The notes: generated from the letters alone by a model not told the origin. DNA of 64,000 nucleotides from an uncultured Bacteroidales bacterium (GCA_964559985.1 CAZLJX010000007.1:13-64012); one strand, 5' to 3'. Positions 39,627-52,153 are shown, counted from the first letter of the stretch. Numbers and translations: made by a program.

Positions 39627-41015
39627 TTATTTTCTGAATTTTTTTACAAAATCGTCTACCTCTTTAACCCCGCCCTGGTAGATAAGATAACCATTGTAGG
39701 GTTCACGCGAGGTTATTTCATCATTAACCGGGGTAAGCATCATATCAATCACTTTCTGCCGCTCGGTGGTTTGTCCCAAAACCCAGCCCAGCTTAATATA
39801 AGCGGTTTCGGGCAGCATATTCTCCAGGGGCACAATTCCTTTGGCCATCAGGTCGCGGCCGGTGTCATAAACGAACATATGGGCATAACCCCAGAGGGTT
39901 TGTACGGTCATAAAAACATGAATTCCTTTTGCTGCAGCCCTTTCGATGGCCGGGTACAAAGGCTTGTTGATATGGCCTAACCCGGTACCGGCAATGATTA
40001 TTCCTTTATAACCATTATCAATAAGCGAATCAATCATATCGGGGTGCATATTGGGATAATAATATACAATGGCAACCCTTTCCTCGAAAAAGGGTAAAAC
40101 AGTGACATTTTTATCTTTCCGCCGGTGATTGTAGTCTTCTTTAATAGGGACAACACCCTTTAATGTAACTGTTCCGACAGGAGTATCGCTGATGGTCCGG
40201 AAAGTGCTTCTGTATGAGGAATGCATTTTCCTGACCCTTGTGCCTCGGTGCAAAAAATCATATTCATCGCTGGTTGGGCCGAACATGCAAACCATTACTT
40301 CGGCAATATTTCCATGGCCGGCAGCAAAGCAGGCATGCATCAGGTTAAGGGCTGCATCGCTTGATGGCCTGTCCGATGAACGCTGCGAACCTACCAGAAT
40401 AATGGGAACCGGTGAATTCTGAACCATAAAAGTCAATGCAGCTGCGGTATGTGATAGCGTATCTGTGCCATGGGCAACCACAATGCCATCGATACCGTTT
40501 TCAATTTCACGGCCAATTGATTTTGCCAACGTTTTATATTGTTCAGGACCCATATTTTCGCTAAATACCGCAAATAATTTCTCGGTTGAAAGGTTACAGA
40601 TTTTTGCCAGTTCTGGCACCGAACCATATAATTCGCCCGGTGTAAAAGCCGGAATAACAGCACCTGTACGGTAATCAAGCCTTGAAGCAATGGTTCCGCC
40701 GGTACCAAACAGTTTTACATGGGGCAACCCTTTAGTTACCGGAAACTGTTTTTCAGGAATTTTGTAATTGGCTTTCTGGTATCCGGCTTCTTTCATTTTC
40801 AAAATAGTGCGGATATCAATGCCAATGTTATAACCTGTAGCAATTTTTAAAACCAGGTGCTGGTCATCATCGTTTTCGGCCCGTGGCAGAATAGTCCCCT
40901 TGAATTCGCCCCGTGTAGTATCAATAATGGCAGTTCCCCAGACCCTGACATTATATTTCTTGAGTGTTGCAAGAGCAGCACCTTTATAACCCTGATATAT
41001 GTCGTCCATAGCCAT
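39627..41015 (-). CDS. gatD: Glu-tRNA(Gln) amidotransferase subunit D (archaeal-type GatD, glutaminase)
   Basis: GatD-specific N-terminal domain (GTILPR...LVLKIATGYNIGI), then asparaginase core TGGTIASRLDYRTGAV, HGTDT, GSQRSSDRPSSD, HRGTRVRKMH, MLPETAYIKLGWVLG. Confidence 0.93.
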   Translation of the reverse strand: MAMDDIYQGYKGAALATLKKYNVRVWGTAIIDTTRGEFKGTILPRAENDDDQHLVLKIATGYNIGIDIRTILKMKEAGYQKANYKIPEKQFPVTKGLPHVKLFGTGGTIASRLDYRTGAVIPAFTPGELYGSVPELAKICNLSTEKLFAVFSENMGPEQYKTLAKSIGREIENGIDGIVVAHGTDTLSHTAAALTFMVQNSPVPIILVGSQRSSDRPSSDAALNLMHACFAAGHGNIAEVMVCMFGPTSDEYDFLHRGTRVRKMHSSYRSTFRTISDTPVGTVTLKGVVPIKEDYNHRRKDKNVTVLPFFEERVAIVYYYPNMHPDMIDSLIDNGYKGIIIAGTGLGHINKPLYPAIERAAAKGIHVFMTVQTLWGYAHMFVYDTGRDLMAKGIVPLENMLPETAYIKLGWVLGQTTERQKVIDMMLTPVNDEITSREPYNGYLIYQGGVKEVDDFVKKFRK

Positions 41016-41025
41016 AATTCAAAAT

Positions 41026-42996
41026 TTATTGTTTATCAATCGATTGGGATAACTCGGTCAATGGCATATTTCCCAGTGCCAGGTGTCTAAGTTGCCCCAT
41101 AATCCAGTGGTGCCTTCCGTCCACTTTAAAATTACGGCGGGTTTCATCGAATTTTTTATTCATATTTTCAATAGCACCGGTTATATCATTTACATGACGT
41201 TTGCGGAATTTTATGGTTTCAAGCACACTTTCAAAATCAAGGCTCGGATTTGAATATAAAACCGGAAGCATGTAACGGGCAAGGTTGATATGCACTTTTT
41301 TTCTGGTAAGAAATTCAAACATTTTATAAATTTTATTATAACTCACCGGACTTTTGCCTTTATACCGGCCTTCCATATTTTTCACGGTCTGGCCCATAAA
41401 GGTTCCGGCAAAACGTGGAGAAATTTCCAGCTCAGTGATCATTTTTTCAATGACCGGGAAAAGGTTTTTACTCAGAATAAAAGTATAGGTATCAGCCGGA
41501 ATCTTCCATTTTACAAGTTGTTCGTAACGTTGATGAATCAATGTCGGAACATTCTTCCTGACACGTTCAATATATTCATCTTCAAGCGGAATAGGAGCTG
41601 AATCCGTATCGGGATACATGCGGTCGGCTCCGGGTAAAACACGTTCAAAAACAGTGGTGCCATCGGGAAAAGGTTTGCGGGTTTCAGACGGAACACCGGC
41701 AAAAGCCATCCTGCATCTTTCTTCAACTGTTTCAACAGCGGTGGGGATATCGGCTTCGGGCCCCCAAAGGATAATCTGCGCATCATTGATTCCTGCCTGG
41801 GTCTTTTTTCGGATCAATTCAAATACTTCTTCTTTTTCAACAGGTTCAATATCTTCTGAACAAATCATGTTAGGTTTTTCGATACAGGCAATTACTTTAA
41901 GCCGGTTGATCAGTTCGTCATAAAAAGGTTTAGACGGCTGGGTAAAGTGTGACAAAACACCCTTAAACATTGGCAGGTTGACAGCAATAATTTTTTCCCC
42001 TCGATTAAATGCTTTATGAATATGTGGGCAAGAAAACTTCATTTTATAATAATCTGTCTCGAACCATGTCATTTTCCATTCTTCAGGATTTGACATTCTT
42101 TTCAGCAGCAATTCCCTGATATGCAGCAAAGCCCATTGTCTGAATGCTTCGTTGTGGGATAAAGCCGGTATCCATCGGTTATGTGAAACACCTTTAATTT
42201 CAACCCTTGTGCCTCCCTGGCAGCTTACATTCACATCTTCCCTGCCCGCTCCTATTCCGGTTCGTACTTTTCCGGTGCTGCGGTTCAAAAAACGAATATA
42301 CTCAGCAGCTTCCATCAATTCATCGGGAGACAACAGTTCGGGTTTTGTTACTGTTTCTATAAGCGGCATTCCCAACCGGTCGGTTTTATAAATCCGGTTA
42401 TGGCCTATATCAGAAACTTCGCGGCACGAATCTTCTTCAATGGATAATTGGATTAAACCCACCTTTTTATTCCGCAGGTTGATTTCACCCTCAACACCAA
42501 GAATTGCAGTACGCTGAAAACCAGTAGGAATACTGCCATCGAGATATTGTTTGCGGGTGATATGTACTTCGCCTACCACATTCAGTTTTGATAATAAGGT
42601 AATCTCGAGGGCTATGTCGAGTGCTTCACGATTAATTTTAAATGGCGGGGTATCGTCAATTTCGTAAGTGCAGGCAGTTTCGTTACTGATACGGTAAAAA
42701 ATATTTTTACGTGTTTTAAATTCCATCAAAGCCGTCCCGTCATACTGTCCAAGTTCTGAAAGTGCTGGCCGCATGTGCCTGATAATTTCAGCCTCAAAAT
42801 TTTCGTCATCGAAATAACGTCCTGCCGGACAACGGCAAAACAGTTTTTCCCTGGTTTTTAACTGCTGATGTACTTCAAGTCCCGATTTAAAACCAATACG
42901 GCGGTAATCTGCATCGGTAGCATTTTTACGTTCAACATAACCAACCTGTTGCCTGGTGGTACTAAAATTCTCTAATGGATTAAAAGCCGGTTCCAT
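41026..42996 (-). CDS. gatE: Glu-tRNA(Gln) amidotransferase subunit E (archaeal-type GatE)
   Basis: GLEVHQQL..KLFCRCP, RPALSELG, DGSIPTGFQRT, EEDSCR, DRLGMPLIE, DVNVS..GGTRVEIKGV, AspRS-like insertion (~aa 310-440), VPSETR..DGTT..R.LPGADRMYPDTD; 10 bp upstream of gatD. Confidence 0.93.
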   Translation of the reverse strand: MEPAFNPLENFSTTRQQVGYVERKNATDADYRRIGFKSGLEVHQQLKTREKLFCRCPAGRYFDDENFEAEIIRHMRPALSELGQYDGTALMEFKTRKNIFYRISNETACTYEIDDTPPFKINREALDIALEITLLSKLNVVGEVHITRKQYLDGSIPTGFQRTAILGVEGEINLRNKKVGLIQLSIEEDSCREVSDIGHNRIYKTDRLGMPLIETVTKPELLSPDELMEAAEYIRFLNRSTGKVRTGIGAGREDVNVSCQGGTRVEIKGVSHNRWIPALSHNEAFRQWALLHIRELLLKRMSNPEEWKMTWFETDYYKMKFSCPHIHKAFNRGEKIIAVNLPMFKGVLSHFTQPSKPFYDELINRLKVIACIEKPNMICSEDIEPVEKEEVFELIRKKTQAGINDAQIILWGPEADIPTAVETVEERCRMAFAGVPSETRKPFPDGTTVFERVLPGADRMYPDTDSAPIPLEDEYIERVRKNVPTLIHQRYEQLVKWKIPADTYTFILSKNLFPVIEKMITELEISPRFAGTFMGQTVKNMEGRYKGKSPVSYNKIYKMFEFLTRKKVHINLARYMLPVLYSNPSLDFESVLETIKFRKRHVNDITGAIENMNKKFDETRRNFKVDGRHHWIMGQLRHLALGNMPLTELSQSIDKQ

Positions 42997-43290: not shown

Positions 43291-43298
43291 TAAATTTG
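43291..43298 (+). promoter_or_regulatory. Promoter -7 element for the first gene of the caspase cassette
   Basis: TAAATTTG, 36 bp upstream of ATG 43335. Confidence 0.5.
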
Positions 43299-43334: not shown

Positions 43335-43946
43335 ATGAAAACAATTGCCATTATTTTCTTTTTAAGTTTTTTCATTCAGATTTCTTATGCACAGAAAACC
43401 ATTATCGATGATTGCCAGAACCTGAAACCGGGAATTTATAAAACATTTGATGAATTCAGATGCAATGCTCCTTCTATTGCTTTGGAATACGAAGTTGAAA
43501 AAATTAATGACCTGGCCTGCCGGCTCAACATTCAGAAAGAAAAAACAGAATTTATTGGCCCGGTATGGGGATTTTGCGATGGAAAAACAGCGTATATCAA
43601 TGTTGATCAGAATATGTCAGGAAGGAAAGTATTCAGGCCTGGTTCATTGTTTATGAAAATTCAATATATCGGCCGTTATTGCTATTATTTGTTTTCATCG
43701 GTGGCTTATACCAATATTTATGCAACCGGCCAGTACCTACCCTATGCAATTGATTTTAATACCGGTTTGGAAATGTGTTTAAACTGCGATATAAATTTCT
43801 GGTTTATAAAACAATCGTGGTTTAAAAAAATTATGACACGCGATTATGAATTATGGAATGAATATAAAAAAGACAAAACCGGTGGAGATTTATTTTTAAA
43901 ATATATCAGACTTTATTCAGAAAAACATAATTATGAAGTATTATAA
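43335..43946 (+). CDS. Secreted hypothetical protein; paralogue of the 33794-34459 protein
   Basis: Start moved to ATG 43335 (MKTIAIIFFLSFFIQISYAQ signal); LKPGIYKTFDEFRCNAP, VWGFCDGKTAYIN, IDFNTG, RDYELWNEY, YIRLYSEKH. Confidence 0.75.
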   Translation: MKTIAIIFFLSFFIQISYAQKTIIDDCQNLKPGIYKTFDEFRCNAPSIALEYEVEKINDLACRLNIQKEKTEFIGPVWGFCDGKTAYINVDQNMSGRKVFRPGSLFMKIQYIGRYCYYLFSSVAYTNIYATGQYLPYAIDFNTGLEMCLNCDINFWFIKQSWFKKIMTRDYELWNEYKKDKTGGDLFLKYIRLYSEKHNYEVL

Positions 43947-44062: not shown

Positions 44063-45496
44063 ATGAAAACCTATTCAACCCTGATCATTGCCCTGTTATT
44101 GGCAGGGTGCACCACTCCAAGCCGCCTGGGTGTCAATTATAAAGGAAAACAAGTGATTAACACTTTTACCACCACCATTGACAATCCGAATATTGATCTG
44201 ACGGTTTCGCCCCTTTCAAAAGAAGATAATGGATATGATGTGAAAGTTCTCAGGAAAAATTTCATTGCCAGTGTGTATAAAAACGAAAAATTATCGGGTG
44301 TTTTACAACAATTTCCGAATGCTAAAATTGAAATGGAAATTGCTGCTTCAGAAGATATTCATAGAACATGGCTGCTTGATATCCCTTTCTTTTATCCGTG
44401 TTGCGGTTATTGGCCATTAACCCCATGGTGGGGATCAACCAATTTATCGGCCCGCATGACTGTTTCAGCCCAGGGTGCTTTTTCCAGTGAATTTAATTTT
44501 ATGGCACAGGAACCATTTTTTATAGCATTATATCCCTATTACCGCGCCGGACGAATTATGACTGAAAACTATTCACTTGCCTACAATAAGCTGTTTGATC
44601 AGGTAAAAAAATATCCCTTTGATGAATTGACAGGAAAAATGAATATTCAGCCTGTTGCCATGTATCCGGGGCAAAATAAGTATTCATTTATACGAAAGTC
44701 GGACGTTGATAACAATATTCCCGAAACAGCAAAATTGAATGAAAACCGTTTTGCTCTCATTATCGGAAACGAAGATTATTCATCGCAGCAAACCGACCTT
44801 ACCACAGAAGCCAACGTCCCCTTTGCCCGCGACGATGCCAGTGCTTTTAACGAATATGCCATTAAGGTACTGGGTATACCACAGGAAAATATAACCTTTA
44901 TGCTCGATGCCACTTCAGGTAAAATGAAACAGGCTTTGGATAAAATGAATAAACTGGCCAAAAACAGCATGGGAAATGCCGAATTATTCTTTTACTACGC
45001 CGGGCATGGTCTTCCGGATGAGGTTAGCAAAGAGCCTTACCTTATTCCTGTCGATATTAGTGGTAATAATGTTGCCGATGGTATAAAACTGGAATATGTG
45101 TACCAAAAACTTACCGAATACCCAAGTAAAAATGTTACCGTTTTTCTCGATGCCTGTTTCAGTGGTGGTGCCCGAAACCAGGGACTTATTGCTGCACGTG
45201 GTGTAAAAGTGAAACCTAAAGAAAATATGGTAAAAGGAAAACTGGTGGTATTTACAGCTTCAACGGGTGAGCAGTCTTCGCTTTCGTACAAAGATAAAGG
45301 CCATGGCTTGTTTACTTATTTTTTACTTCTGAAATTGAAAGAAACTCAGGGTAATATCACTTATAAAGAATTATCGGACTACCTGATGCAACAGGTTGGC
45401 CTTAAATCAGTAATGCTCAACAATAAAGAGCAGAACCCGCAGGTCAATGTTAGTCCTGAAATTCAAAACCAATGGCAAAACTGGAAATTAAAATAA
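44063..45496 (+). CDS. Lipoprotein with C-terminal caspase-like (peptidase C14) domain
   Basis: LAGC lipobox; unknown ~190-aa N-domain; RFALIIGNEDY, FYYAGHG (catalytic His), FLDACFSG (catalytic Cys), HGLFTYFLL. Confidence 0.9.
   Translation: MKTYSTLIIALLLAGCTTPSRLGVNYKGKQVINTFTTTIDNPNIDLTVSPLSKEDNGYDVKVLRKNFIASVYKNEKLSGVLQQFPNAKIEMEIAASEDIHRTWLLDIPFFYPCCGYWPLTPWWGSTNLSARMTVSAQGAFSSEFNFMAQEPFFIALYPYYRAGRIMTENYSLAYNKLFDQVKKYPFDELTGKMNIQPVAMYPGQNKYSFIRKSDVDNNIPETAKLNENRFALIIGNEDYSSQQTDLTTEANVPFARDDASAFNEYAIKVLGIPQENITFMLDATSGKMKQALDKMNKLAKNSMGNAELFFYYAGHGLPDEVSKEPYLIPVDISGNNVADGIKLEYVYQKLTEYPSKNVTVFLDACFSGGARNQGLIAARGVKVKPKENMVKGKLVVFTASTGEQSSLSYKDKGHGLFTYFLLLKLKETQGNITYKELSDYLMQQVGLKSVMLNNKEQNPQVNVSPEIQNQWQNWKLK
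44705..45489 (+). repeat. Direct repeat copy 1 (caspase domain); copy 2 lies 1346 bp downstream
   Basis: 44705-45298 vs 46051-46644: 594 bp with 2 synonymous mismatches by eye. 45299-45394 is a diverged patch. 45395-45489 vs 46741-46835: 95 bp with 3 synonymous mismatches. Confidence 0.95.
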
Positions 45497-45507
45497 GCAC
45501 TTAGTTT

Positions 45508-46842
45508 ATGAAATGGATATGCCTATCATTATTAGCTACATTGGCAATTATATTAAGTTCTTGCGCAACAATTATATACGGCACTAAACAAACCATTTCA
45601 GTCCAGTCAGACCCCAGCGATGCCGAGGTCTATATCAATGGAAAATATTATGGAAATACACCCTGCCTGGTTTCTGTAAAACGGAAACAAAAGAAAAGCG
45701 ATATCAATGAAAAAAATGAATTACATTATATATTAAAAAAATCCGGTTATGAAGACCGGCATATCATTGATCACAGAAGAATTACATGGGCCGCTTATCT
45801 TGATGGTTACTTAAATGTTCCGTTTGGTTTATTGTTTATTGCATCCTGTGCCGGCGATCCGGAAGTAGCAGGTACCGGCTGGAGTATCGGGCTGCCAATG
45901 GTAGCATCAATTCCACTGGATATGATGACAGGTTCATTATATTCTTATAATAAACTGATTGAGGCCAACTTAAATATTGATATTTATAAAAAAATTGAAC
46001 CTGGAAATAATAAAAATGCCAAAGATTACACTTACATAAGAAACGCCGATGTTGATAACAATATTCCCGAAACAGCAAAATTGAATGAAAACCGTTTTGC
46101 ACTCATTATCGGGAACGAAGATTATTCATCGCAGCAAACCGACCTTACCACAGAAGCCAACGTCCCCTTTGCCCGCGACGATGCCAGTGCTTTTAACGAA
46201 TATGCCATTAAGGTACTGGGTATACCACAGGAAAATATAACCTTTATGCTCGATGCCACTTCAGGTAAAATGAAACAGGCTTTGGATAAAATGAATAAAC
46301 TGGCCAAAAACAGCATGGGAAATGCCGAATTATTCTTTTACTACGCCGGGCATGGTCTTCCGGATGAGGTTAGCAAAGAGCCTTACCTTATTCCTGTCGA
46401 TATTAGTGGTAATAATGTTGCCGATGGTATAAAACTGGAATATGTGTACCAAAAACTTACCGAATACCCAAGTAAAAATGTTACCGTTTTTCTCGATGCC
46501 TGTTTCAGTGGTGGTGCCCGAAACCAGGGACTTATTGCTGCACGTGGTGTAAAAGTGAAACCTAAAGAAAATATGGTAAAAGGAAAACTGGTGGTATTTA
46601 CAGCTTCAACGGGTGAGCAGTCTTCGCTTTCGTACAAAGATAAAAGTCATGGATTATTTACCTACTTCCTGTTGTTGAAGCTACAAGAATCTCAAGGTGA
46701 AGTTACATATAAAGAATTATCAGATTATCTTTCCCTAAAAGTTGGCCTCAAATCAGTAATGCTCAACAATAAAGAGCAGAACCCGCAGGTCAATGTCAGT
46801 CCTGAAATTCAAAACCAGTGGCAAAACTGGAAATTCAGATGA
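45508..46842 (+). CDS. Lipoprotein with PEGA-like N-domain and C-terminal caspase-like (peptidase C14) domain
   Basis: LSSC lipobox; ISVQSDPSDAEVYINGKYYGNTP (PEGA-like); hydrophobic hairpin; same YAGHG / DACFSG dyad as the upstream gene. Confidence 0.9.
   Translation: MKWICLSLLATLAIILSSCATIIYGTKQTISVQSDPSDAEVYINGKYYGNTPCLVSVKRKQKKSDINEKNELHYILKKSGYEDRHIIDHRRITWAAYLDGYLNVPFGLLFIASCAGDPEVAGTGWSIGLPMVASIPLDMMTGSLYSYNKLIEANLNIDIYKKIEPGNNKNAKDYTYIRNADVDNNIPETAKLNENRFALIIGNEDYSSQQTDLTTEANVPFARDDASAFNEYAIKVLGIPQENITFMLDATSGKMKQALDKMNKLAKNSMGNAELFFYYAGHGLPDEVSKEPYLIPVDISGNNVADGIKLEYVYQKLTEYPSKNVTVFLDACFSGGARNQGLIAARGVKVKPKENMVKGKLVVFTASTGEQSSLSYKDKSHGLFTYFLLLKLQESQGEVTYKELSDYLSLKVGLKSVMLNNKEQNPQVNVSPEIQNQWQNWKFR
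46051..46835 (+). repeat. Direct repeat copy 2 (caspase domain)
   Basis: See copy 1; constant offset of 1346 bp. Confidence 0.95.
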
Positions 46843-48297: not shown

Positions 48298-48900
48298 TCA
48301 GTATTTAATTTTCCCTTTGTACGAATTGGAAAGATATAAAGTAACCTGCAATCCTGCAATAGGATAATGCCTGGTCAGGTGGGCAAAAATACCAATTCCT
48401 ATTCCCATGTCGTAAACAGGTTTATACACCAGGTCAGCAGCAAGGTACAGCGATGGTTCAAAAAATGCTTTATAATATTTTGAACTATCTTCGATATGAT
48501 GAAAATTATAACCAATGGCACAACCCGGCCCGGCAATCAGGCTAAGGTTTACTGATGAATTTTCAAACCTGTATCCGCTACCCAGATGAAAACCTTTATG
48601 CGACTGGATAGAGGTTACAGTATCGTCACTGTTATGGAATAAAAAACTCTCGGCCTGGTAAACAAATCCCCCATTAATGATAAAACGGCTAACCGGAATA
48701 TAAAGCTCAGCCCTGAAATCCGATTCACGGTTGCGGTTCTTAAAGTTGTAGCCTTCGCCCATCGAAAGTGTAAGATAACTGGCATTTTTTCTGAATATCT
48801 TGTTGTCAATAATGGTGTCGCGGTCAGCATACTGAGCATTGCACAACGCAAATGACAAACCCAGCAATCCTGTTATCAAACCAAAAAACTTCAAGTACAT
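48298..48900 (-). CDS. Hypothetical exported protein, possibly a small beta-barrel
   Basis: Signal peptide; alternating aromatic/Gly beta-strand pattern (FHLGSGYRFE, GIGIGIFAHL, AGLQVTLYL). Confidence 0.6.
   Translation of the reverse strand: MYLKFFGLITGLLGLSFALCNAQYADRDTIIDNKIFRKNASYLTLSMGEGYNFKNRNRESDFRAELYIPVSRFIINGGFVYQAESFLFHNSDDTVTSIQSHKGFHLGSGYRFENSSVNLSLIAGPGCAIGYNFHHIEDSSKYYKAFFEPSLYLAADLVYKPVYDMGIGIGIFAHLTRHYPIAGLQVTLYLSNSYKGKIKY

Positions 48901-52080: not shown

Positions 52081-52153
<73 letters not shown>

Follow-up and report, generated by a model that had tools for sequence, protein, structure and literature searches.

Two adjacent lipoprotein peptidases

We analysed a 64,000-nt stretch of an uncultured Bacteroidales bacterium (GCA_964559985.1 CAZLJX010000007.1:13-64012), hereafter the window, on which all coordinates are counted, and focused on two adjacent genes that encode lipoprotein peptidases of the caspase-like C14 type. 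Gene 1 (44063-45496, plus strand) is an open reading frame (ORF) of 477 aa with a Pfam C14 match at 1.2e-18, and gene 2 (45508-46842, plus strand) is an ORF of 444 aa with Pfam matches to C14 (2.1e-19) and PEGA (1.4e-9). The two genes lie head-to-tail with a spacer of 11 bp, exactly where a first-pass annotation made from the sequence alone had placed them, and they are probably co-transcribed. The spacer itself contains no TAnnTTTG motif; motifs of this kind do occur at suggestive sites (one at 43291), yet their number is close to chance expectation, and a scan of the locus for sigma-70-type promoters and terminators also gave matches at chance level.

At the N-terminus of both proteins is a signal peptide closed by a lipobox of the form [LVI][ASTVI][GAS]C, LAGC in gene 1 (L13-A-G-C16; signal peptide 44063-44110, plus strand, with Cys16 at 44108-44110) and LSSC in gene 2 (L16-S-S-C19; 45508-45564, plus strand, with Cys19 at 45562-45564). 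The cysteine to be lipidated is at least 90% conserved in each family (Cys16 among 41 homologues, Cys19 among 52), and together the signal peptides and lipoboxes bear out the earlier proposal that these are exported C14 peptidases with a predicted lipid anchor in the membrane. The C14 module occupies the C-terminus in both cases: residues 213-477 in gene 1 (44699-45493, plus strand; delimited by Pfam, alignment and AlphaFold) and residues 180-444 in gene 2 (46045-46839, plus strand; from Pfam and a neighbour-joining tree, in which this module is of the gene-1 type). PF00656 scores 68.1 and 70.6 bits on the two proteins against a cut-off of 21.4, and the matches span positions 2-225 of the 233 in the profile. 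Identity between the C-terminal halves is 93% over 280 aa and rises to 95.8% over the 265-aa C14 domain, which agrees with the shared domain described at first pass. For the N-terminal halves a profile-profile comparison with hhalign returned a probability of 0.5%, again in line with the initial observation that they have no recognisable kinship.

Gene conversion between the two protease domains

When the two genes are compared in register (offset 1346), DNA identity rises from ~30% to ~100% at 44705/46051, in the DVDNNIP codons, which is precisely the sharp switch point that had been noticed in the sequence. Downstream of this point the pair forms a mosaic. The first 594 bp, which we interpret as a recent gene-conversion tract (copy A at 44705-45298, plus strand, paired with 46051-46644), contain two mismatches, both synonymous (synonymous divergence, dS, 0.016; nonsynonymous divergence, dN, 0). 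Next comes an unconverted patch of 35 codons or 105 bp (copy A at 45299-45403, plus strand, paired with 46645-46749) with 35 nucleotide differences and ~67% identity, in which the proportion of synonymous differences (pS) is 0.97, i.e. saturated, and dN is 0.156. A second near-identical tract then follows (copy A at 45404-45489, plus strand, paired with 46750-46835) with two mismatches; in the in-frame segment 45404-45493 there are four differences and dS is 0.15. A saturated patch inside an otherwise near-identical tract argues for gene conversion superimposed on an old duplication rather than for a recent duplication. The 5′ end of the tract falls at SDVDxNIP, the start of the C14 module, because homology between the genes stops there, and the sharp switch is therefore a conversion boundary and no graft junction.

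Phylogenetic analysis of the C14 domain gave a consistent picture. In a neighbour-joining tree built from this domain only, the proteases of gene-1-type proteins (with the N-terminal module N1) and those of gene-2-type proteins (with the N-terminal module N2) form separate clades with two exceptions, gene 2 of the window and gene 2 of locus L001 (P0034), each of which falls within the N1 clade as the sister of its own tandem partner. The proteins that are closest to gene 2 by their N-termini (P0121-P0127) keep a C14 domain of the N2 clade. Since the N2 relatives retain their own clade while the C14 domain of gene 2 lies inside the N1 clade, the original C14 domain of gene 2 was overwritten, with gene 1 as the donor. 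Even the patch in gene 2 is nearer to the N1 than to the N2 type (64% versus 52%), and both patches are N1-clade-like, which implies an older conversion, subsequent divergence, and a recent conversion that skipped the patch. The C14 domain of gene 1 has thus been copied repeatedly over that of gene 2 by intrachromosomal gene conversion. The within-genome identity of the paired C14 domains is 96% in the window (genes 11 bp apart), 85% in L001 (13 bp apart) and 57-59% in L003, in which a small gene stands between the two C14 genes; other tandem C14 pairs are not homogenised (46% in L032, 29 bp apart, and 32% in L024).

The first-pass annotation had inferred N-terminal domains grafted onto a constant effector. 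If the switch point marked a recent graft, a single gene would have been duplicated in tandem and the N-terminal half of one copy then replaced, which would account for the near-zero divergence over ~600 bp and the sharp edge at the domain border. The N2 module, however, has full-length orthologues with a C14 clade of their own, the saturation of synonymous sites in the 105-bp patch is impossible for a recent duplication, and L003 holds the same pair in an un-homogenised state (57-59% identity). The present C14 tree refutes the scenario, and we consider it very improbable: both architectures are old, and it is the C14 domain of gene 2 that was overwritten by conversion. As a gene-1-type C14 domain is carried on a gene-2 scaffold in two lineages and evolves under purifying selection, these sequence comparisons indicate that the protease module is functionally interchangeable between scaffolds. 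Conversion has in this sense performed a natural domain-swap experiment, which may guide the design of chimeras and the choice of a representative enzyme.

Evidence for the tandem in independent metagenomes

The locus occurs in metagenomes from anaerobic digesters, sludge and wastewater, and we used unitig depths to evaluate the tandem arrangement. In X1, the upstream flank together with N1 has a depth of 50, the 594-bp tract, which forms a single 594-bp unitig, 76 (75.7), the gene-1 patch 54, a 47-bp shared segment of the second near-identical tract 104, the unitig 45421-46080 45, the gene-2 patch 40, and the downstream flank 50. The unitig 45421-46080 links the 3′ end of gene 1 to N2, and each patch copy is represented by a separate 165-bp unitig at ~1x depth in both X1 and X2. 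The same graph was recovered in X2, with ~9x for unique and ~15x for shared segments. Unique parts at ~1x and shared parts at 1.5-2x in independent metagenomes support a true tandem. Strain variants within the shared tract sit on a single unitig and the copies co-vary between strains; at 44755 and 44767, the gene-1 copy in X2 and X3 has alleles that in the window belong to gene 2.

A different structure is found in L083 (1-3160), an ENA k141 contig from a strain that is 96-98% identical. This contig contains a single hybrid gene, with the order small ORF, N1, one C14 domain and then the flank that lies downstream of gene 2, and its alleles are those of gene 1 at the 5′ boundary and those of gene 2 in the 3′ patch. 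This is what a k141 assembler gives when a tandem repeat collapses; otherwise, L083 would be a real deletion variant that arose by unequal crossover. The hybrid also stands in protein databases, as P0001. Taken at face value, L083 raises the possibility that mis-joining or consensus polishing produced the second C14 copy, or its near-identity, and that a single gene is real, and the 594-bp repeat does exceed the length of short reads. Such an artefact is hard to reconcile with both patches and the unitig joining gene 1 to N2 being near single-copy while shared segments reach 1.5-2x in two independent runs, or with L001/L002, which were assembled from two further samples and show the same tandem with copies that are 85% identical; given also that collapse of a tandem repeat is expected to yield the structure of L083, we think it has hardly any chance of being correct. 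The case serves as a warning for annotation, since short-read assemblies can merge this tandem into one hybrid gene.

Two old families with facultative pairing

Gene-1-type proteins (N1 plus C14, 470-500 aa) have 40 full-length homologues with 42-97% identity, and gene-2-type proteins (PEGA, a hydrophobic stretch and C14, 410-450 aa) have hundreds of full-length homologues with 45-60% identity. The sources are mostly Bacteroidales, Tenuifilaceae, Salinivirgaceae, Williamwhitmania and Cytophagales metagenome-assembled genomes, in which these proteins are annotated as 'caspase family protein'. Both architectures are old, separately conserved Bacteroidota families.

They belong to a wider subfamily, for which we confirmed at least 581 matching stretches in species-representative genomes. 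The C14 domain is at the extreme C-terminus in all 79 loci that were fetched, preceded by N-terminal regions of ~145 to >1,000 aa, and the N-terminal modules of the subfamily comprise PEGA, N1, WD40, TPR, MORN, Sel1 and WG repeats, CARDB/Ig-like domains, right-handed beta-helices and Glucodextran_B-like domains. Signal peptides are found in 79 of 88 subfamily ORFs and are mostly of the signal peptidase I (SPI) type ending in ...AQ/SQ, the remaining ORFs being mostly partial; lipoboxes are mainly confined to the N1 and N2 types. The initial concept of a constant effector with exchangeable N-termini therefore survives at the level of the family, in which C14 always stands C-terminally behind many different modules, and relatives with another N-terminus at the locus were also found, as a Glucodextran_B-like C14 gene lies beside the gene-1 type in L085 and L090.

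The genomic association of the two types varies. L001/L002 have the order N1 then N2, 13 bp apart, and L003 and the P0011 locus have the order N2, small gene, then N1. Gene-1 types are accompanied by an N2 partner in the window, L001, L003 and the P0011 locus and stand alone in L084, L087, L088 and L089, and gene-2 types are mostly alone. Since each architecture often occurs alone, pairing is facultative, and a two-part system in which each gene requires the other is not supported.

Structure and predicted specificity of the C14 module

The catalytic dyad that had been read in both proteins (YAGHG, DACFSG) is intact, with His315 (45005-45007) and Cys365 (45155-45157) in gene 1 and His282 (46351-46353) and Cys332 (46501-46503) in gene 2, and all four residues are invariant among the 41 and 52 homologues of the respective families. 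In the AlphaFold models (predicted local distance difference test, pLDDT, 79.5 for gene 1 and 86.5 for gene 2) the domain is a six-stranded caspase-type fold, in which YAGHG closes the strand 307-318 (gene 1) or 274-285 (gene 2) and DACFSG closes the strand 357-365 or 324-332. Across the subfamily, almost every architecture has a C14 module that starts with the SDVDxNIP motif (window copies at 44699-44722 and 46045-46068), the D-x-D-x-N pattern of which resembles a Ca2+-binding loop. Disordered linkers (residues 196-205 in gene 1 and 160-172 in gene 2) join the N-terminal modules to C14 in the models.

Foldseek searches with the predicted models recovered MALT1, metacaspase 9, caspases 3, 8 and 9, yeast Yca1 and GSU0716 at E-values of 1e-8 to 1e-12. 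For gene 1, the top match was MALT1 (4.6e-12), followed by metacaspase 9 of Arabidopsis, caspase-8 and Geobacter GSU0716, and for gene 2 it was again MALT1 (1.1e-11). In the model, strands beta5 and beta6 and helices alpha4 and alpha5 follow the L4 loop, and the Pfam match covers the whole caspase profile. Two invariant acidic residues, Asp258 (44834-44836) in helix alpha1 (254-268) and Asp363 (45149-45151) two positions before the catalytic Cys, occupy the positions of the S1-pocket acids of TbMCA2 (D95/D211) and MALT1 (D365/D462) (PMC4357240), from which we infer cleavage after Arg/Lys and not after Asp; the same specificity is predicted for both enzymes. The L4 loop that follows the catalytic Cys (367-388) has low confidence in the model and holds the invariant residues Arg371 and Arg379, which are candidate sites for autoprocessing or for substrate-induced ordering.

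The N-terminal modules

The N1 module of gene 1 (residues 17-196; 44111-44650, plus strand) is an alpha/beta domain that an AlphaFold model and profile and phmmer searches place in a superfamily of LBF_2127-like lipoproteins. The model has strands at 44-49, 88-101, 119-136 and 140-156, helices at 59-83 and 158-183, and a low-confidence loop at 106-118. The 'odd hydrophobic segment' singled out at first pass is present but proved to be a loop, the aromatic and proline-rich sequence W-L-L-D-I-P-F-F-Y-P-C-C-G-Y-W-P-L-T-P-W-W-G (residues 103-124), which is nearly invariant and is the most conserved motif of N1; its hydrophobicity is below that of a transmembrane helix. Gene 1 itself scores 18.7 bits (E = 1e-3) with NCBIfam NF047770 (LBF_2127 family putative lipoprotein), for which the cut-off is 150. 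An exhaustive phmmer search with N1 gave 52 representative clusters, and the remote relatives retain the lipobox Cys and the motif RT.ILD..FFYP..G..P.TP.WG; 24 of 42 match NF047770, with E-values down to 9e-23, and many carry CsgG, LpoB, DUF3280, FlgO or TolB_N-type domains in the place of C14. At least one remote relative is from Myxococcota and annotated 'hypothetical protein', as found in a cluster look-up that yielded almost no other names. By transitive homology, gene 1 thus appears to carry a domain related to NF047770 while standing outside that family itself, and N1 may be regarded as a mobile, membrane-proximal lipoprotein module. A module first described as an unknown domain is now placed in a superfamily of lipoprotein domains common to LpoB/CsgG-type proteins. 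Neither the gene-1 family profile nor the N1 superfamily profile retrieved a useful match from the PDB sequences, and in Foldseek searches with the full models the top 50 matches were all to the caspase domain, with none to the N1 or N2 fold.

Gene 2 carries a PEGA domain, as the first-pass annotation had suspected. PF08308 matches residues 29-61 at 38.1 bits (cut-off 20.8), and the model has a six-strand beta-sandwich over residues 27-89 (45586-45774, plus strand; strands 27-35, 40-43, 46-50, 53-58, 71-77 and 84-89, pLDDT >90). It is followed by a weakly hydrophobic helical hairpin (residues 94-141; 45787-45930, plus strand; modelled helices 94-114, 121-132 and 134-141) that ends in the family motif D..TG(A/S)...Y, in which D138, G142 and Y147 each reach 90% conservation or more across the gene-2 family. 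According to the alignment of that family, the middle of the hairpin is a ~20-aa insertion specific to the clade of the window. The only publication that we found pairing 'PEGA domain' with 'caspase' was the OCTIN/FGE paper (PMC5915273), which is irrelevant to the architecture described here.

Localization and proposed role

In Bacteroidota, surface display of lipoproteins depends on a lipoprotein export signal (LES) of the form C-X-K-(D/E)2 or SDDDD (PMC5080379). The mature N-termini are C-TTPSRL in gene 1 and C-ATIIYG in gene 2, neither of which contains an acidic residue, and neither protein has K-(D/E)2, Q-A-(D/E)2 or an acidic run at positions +2 to +6. There is also no room for a C-terminal domain of the type IX secretion system (T9SS), as C14 ends both proteins. 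The hydrophobic segments of genes 1 and 2 reach a maximum 19-residue Kyte-Doolittle value of 1.25, which is below the level of a transmembrane helix, and with no segment of transmembrane-grade hydrophobicity the protease and the lipid anchor should be located on one and the same side of the membrane. Both enzymes are therefore most likely lipid-anchored envelope proteases that face the periplasm. A single-pass topology for N2, with C14 in the cytoplasm, was rejected: the segment is too weakly hydrophobic and includes Asp, Pro and Gly, and within the same C14 subfamily SPI-type relatives are exported although they lack any such segment.

We also considered that the two enzymes could be exposed on the surface or carried on vesicles, where they would digest external proteins in a nutritional or antagonistic role. 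The organism comes from anaerobic digester and sludge communities, a gene for an M20 peptidase is adjacent, and lipid-anchored clan CD proteases of other families exist in Bacteroidota, such as the C11 protease fragipain and the C25 gingipains. Many Bacteroidota lipoproteins are moreover displayed on the surface (PMC5080379). Against this, neither protein has an acidic LES after the lipidated Cys or a T9SS C-terminal domain, C14 enzymes are typically limited, site-specific proteases, and elsewhere members of the N1 superfamily are joined to periplasmic LpoB/CsgG-type domains, so that a surface role appears quite unlikely.

We regard it as likely that genes 1 and 2 encode two old paralogous, lipid-anchored and exported C14 endopeptidases whose protease domains were homogenised by conversion and which function in periplasmic envelope proteolysis. 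After Sec export and lipidation, both enzymes would sit on the membrane leaflet that faces the periplasm. Activation may then require dimerisation or a cut within the Arg-containing loop that follows the catalytic Cys, while the N-terminal modules would hold the protease at the membrane and select the place or the substrate. The role would be the processing or turnover of envelope proteins by cuts after Arg/Lys, and not cell suicide, and the small protein encoded upstream at 43335 might act as a partner.

Several points weigh against this interpretation. In addition to the single hybrid gene in L083, the shared 594-bp unitig in X1 has a depth of 1.5x and not 2x, and Logan contigs lose rare variants, so the exact degree to which the copies match may differ between strains. 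The equivalence of the S1 pocket is based on motif and secondary-structure position and not on superposition of a ligand. The inter-domain geometry of the models, on which any reading of autoinhibition or of membrane insertion of the hydrophobic loops would depend, is uncertain (predicted template-modelling score, pTM, 0.57-0.62). The localization rules come from few Bacteroidota species, and sorting between inner and outer membrane is not predictable. Finally, a search for RNA-seq runs containing the locus found none.

The first-pass annotation had instead envisaged a modular envelope system in which exchangeable sensors are joined to caspases that possibly hetero-oligomerise or cross-activate; read in this way, the locus would be a dedicated two-component system, perhaps with a function in cell death or antiphage defence. 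Several features fit this proposal: the protease domains are near-identical, so that any interface for dimerisation would be compatible, their fold is like those of the dimer-activated MALT1 and caspases, the short gap of 11 bp hints at a common transcript, at least four lineages contain the pair, and PADLOC returns a match to its generic 'caspase' domain model at 1e-12. Other evidence speaks against it. Each architecture occurs alone in many genomes and the type of partner varies, the N-terminal modules resemble anchoring or binding domains and not known sensors, and once exported a protease has no access to death substrates in the cytoplasm. The model for EACC1-associated caspases (NF047832) scores 69-70 bits, well below its cut-off of 140, and in place of defence genes the surroundings hold genes for MutS, RNase III, FabF, GatD/E, M20 and iPGM. 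With housekeeping neighbours, and with PADLOC and EACC1 matches that are at the domain level only, a role in cell death, antiphage defence or sensing is not borne out, and we consider the two-component system unlikely.

Hetero-dimerisation of the two products is nevertheless possible, and it is attractive because the nearest relatives of the fold are dimer-activated and the two C14 domains are almost identical. A more far-reaching idea would be a periplasmic caspase-like network in Bacteroidota, in which dozens of C14 enzymes, each with its own targeting, rely on a common protease module able to dimerise, and in which selection keeps conversion going in tandem pairs because identical protease domains allow two differently anchored proteins to heterodimerise and cross-activate. 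This is speculative and we attach little probability to it; if true, it would represent an extracytoplasmic analogue of the logic of initiator and executioner caspases. More generally, prokaryotic caspase homologues have mostly been discussed as cytoplasmic effectors of death or defence, and the large exported subfamily in Bacteroidota, as far as its sequences reveal, points to a role in the envelope.

Genomic neighbourhood

Upstream of gene 1 lies a gene for a small secreted protein of 203 aa (43335-43946, plus strand) with an SPI-type signal peptide ending in ...SYAQ and several conserved Cys residues; it had no match in Pfam, NCBIfam, PADLOC or PDB. Homologues are found directly upstream of gene-1-type genes in L083 (96%), L003 (52%, 1e-71), L084 (two copies) and L088 (1e-73), and none was found at the gene-1-type loci of L001, L085, L087, L089 and L090. 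In the closest subclade, gene-1-type genes may thus have this protein as an optional partner encoded upstream. In L085 (5356-7814) and L090 (7501-9930), the Glucodextran_B-like C14 gene is accompanied by a gene for a conserved secreted protein of 214-215 aa (68% identical), which looks like a second pairing of a small protein with a C14 peptidase.

The neighbours in the window encode GatD/GatE-like proteins, an M20 peptidase, DUF3109, iPGM, PNP, MutS, RNase III, FabF, ABC-F and Wzy/Wzz, and there are no genes for NTPases, gasdermins, CRISPR, EACC1, toxins or other defence functions within ~10 kb on either side. At 39627-42996 (minus strand), a GatD_N plus asparaginase gene (462 aa) adjoins a gene with a GatB/GatE catalytic domain (656 aa), and this pair looks like a Glu-tRNA(Gln) amidotransferase of the GatD/GatE type. 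This type is regarded as archaeal and is hence unexpected in Bacteroidota; horizontal transfer or another function may be involved. Beside the M20 peptidase gene there is a 200-aa ORF (48298-48900, minus strand) with an N-terminal signal-like sequence and without a Pfam match, and a single tRNA gene (52081-52153, minus strand) is the sole Rfam match in the window. In L003 (1-2404) and L001 (220-615), genes for an FHA-Ser/Thr kinase, PP2C and SpoIIE-type phosphatases are located a few kb from the C14 pair. A conserved linkage to Ser/Thr kinases and PP2C/SpoIIE was considered and dismissed, as it is absent from the window and from the other N1-type loci and is probably a coincidence.

Comparison with known systems

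Modular N-termini and likely exported members are already known among prokaryotic caspase homologues from a 2012 survey (Asplund-Samuelsson et al., PMC3501461), which described 112 types of architecture, N-terminal helices interpreted as probable signal peptides, and likely extracellular members, and which counted 28 caspase homologues in Haliscomenobacter, a Bacteroidetes genome. That survey does not cover lipoprotein anchoring, the N1 or PEGA architectures, a protease placed strictly at the C-terminus, or concerted evolution of tandem copies. The orthocaspases, of which one had been characterised biochemically as of a 2017 review, provide a further comparison. Like the proteins studied here, orthocaspases such as MaOC1 of Microcystis aeruginosa PCC 7806 have a C14 His-Cys dyad, an acidic S1 pocket and many architectures per phylum. 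The p20 domains of M. aeruginosa PCC 7806 group together within that strain even though they belong to different architectures, a pattern that has been termed 'domain-swapping' (PMC5756287) and is analogous to the homogenisation of C14 in the window. They differ in that the characterised orthocaspases are cytoplasmic and usually have their accessory domains at the C-terminus (PMC5756287), whereas here the protease is C-terminal behind a signal peptide and N-terminal modules. Orthocaspases are also defined by p20 only, with no p10-like region (PMC5756287), while the fold in the models looks closer to a complete six-stranded domain of the caspase/paracaspase type.

The best structural matches were to MALT1 and the type I and II metacaspases (Foldseek E-values of ~1e-11 to 1e-12, with template-modelling scores normalised to the target of at most 0.70), with which the window proteins share an Asp on alpha1 and another at two residues before the catalytic Cys. 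Sequence identity to these proteins is 16-18%, and the window proteins have no identifiable death domain, Ig domain or Ca-binding 280-loop and are bacterial, exported and predicted to be lipid-anchored. On the N-terminal side, gene 1 resembles LBF_2127 (NF047770) and LpoB/CsgG-type lipoproteins in the lipobox Cys and the RT.ILD..FFYP..G..P.TP.WG loop of N1, and it is set apart from them by its score of 18.7 against 150 bits and by a protease at the position that is taken in the others by an LpoB, CsgG or DUF3280-like domain.

Concerted evolution of bacterial paralogues by gene conversion has been described for RF1/RF2, mtrA copies and rRNA operons (PMC4530459, PMC4632066, PMC6002687). In such cases, as in the window, paralogues within a genome are closer to each other than to orthologues, and tracts with near-zero dS lie beside saturated segments. 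In contrast to these cases, conversion at the C14 locus is limited to one domain while the other halves of the genes are non-homologous, so that the process amounts to a natural domain swap between two architectures.

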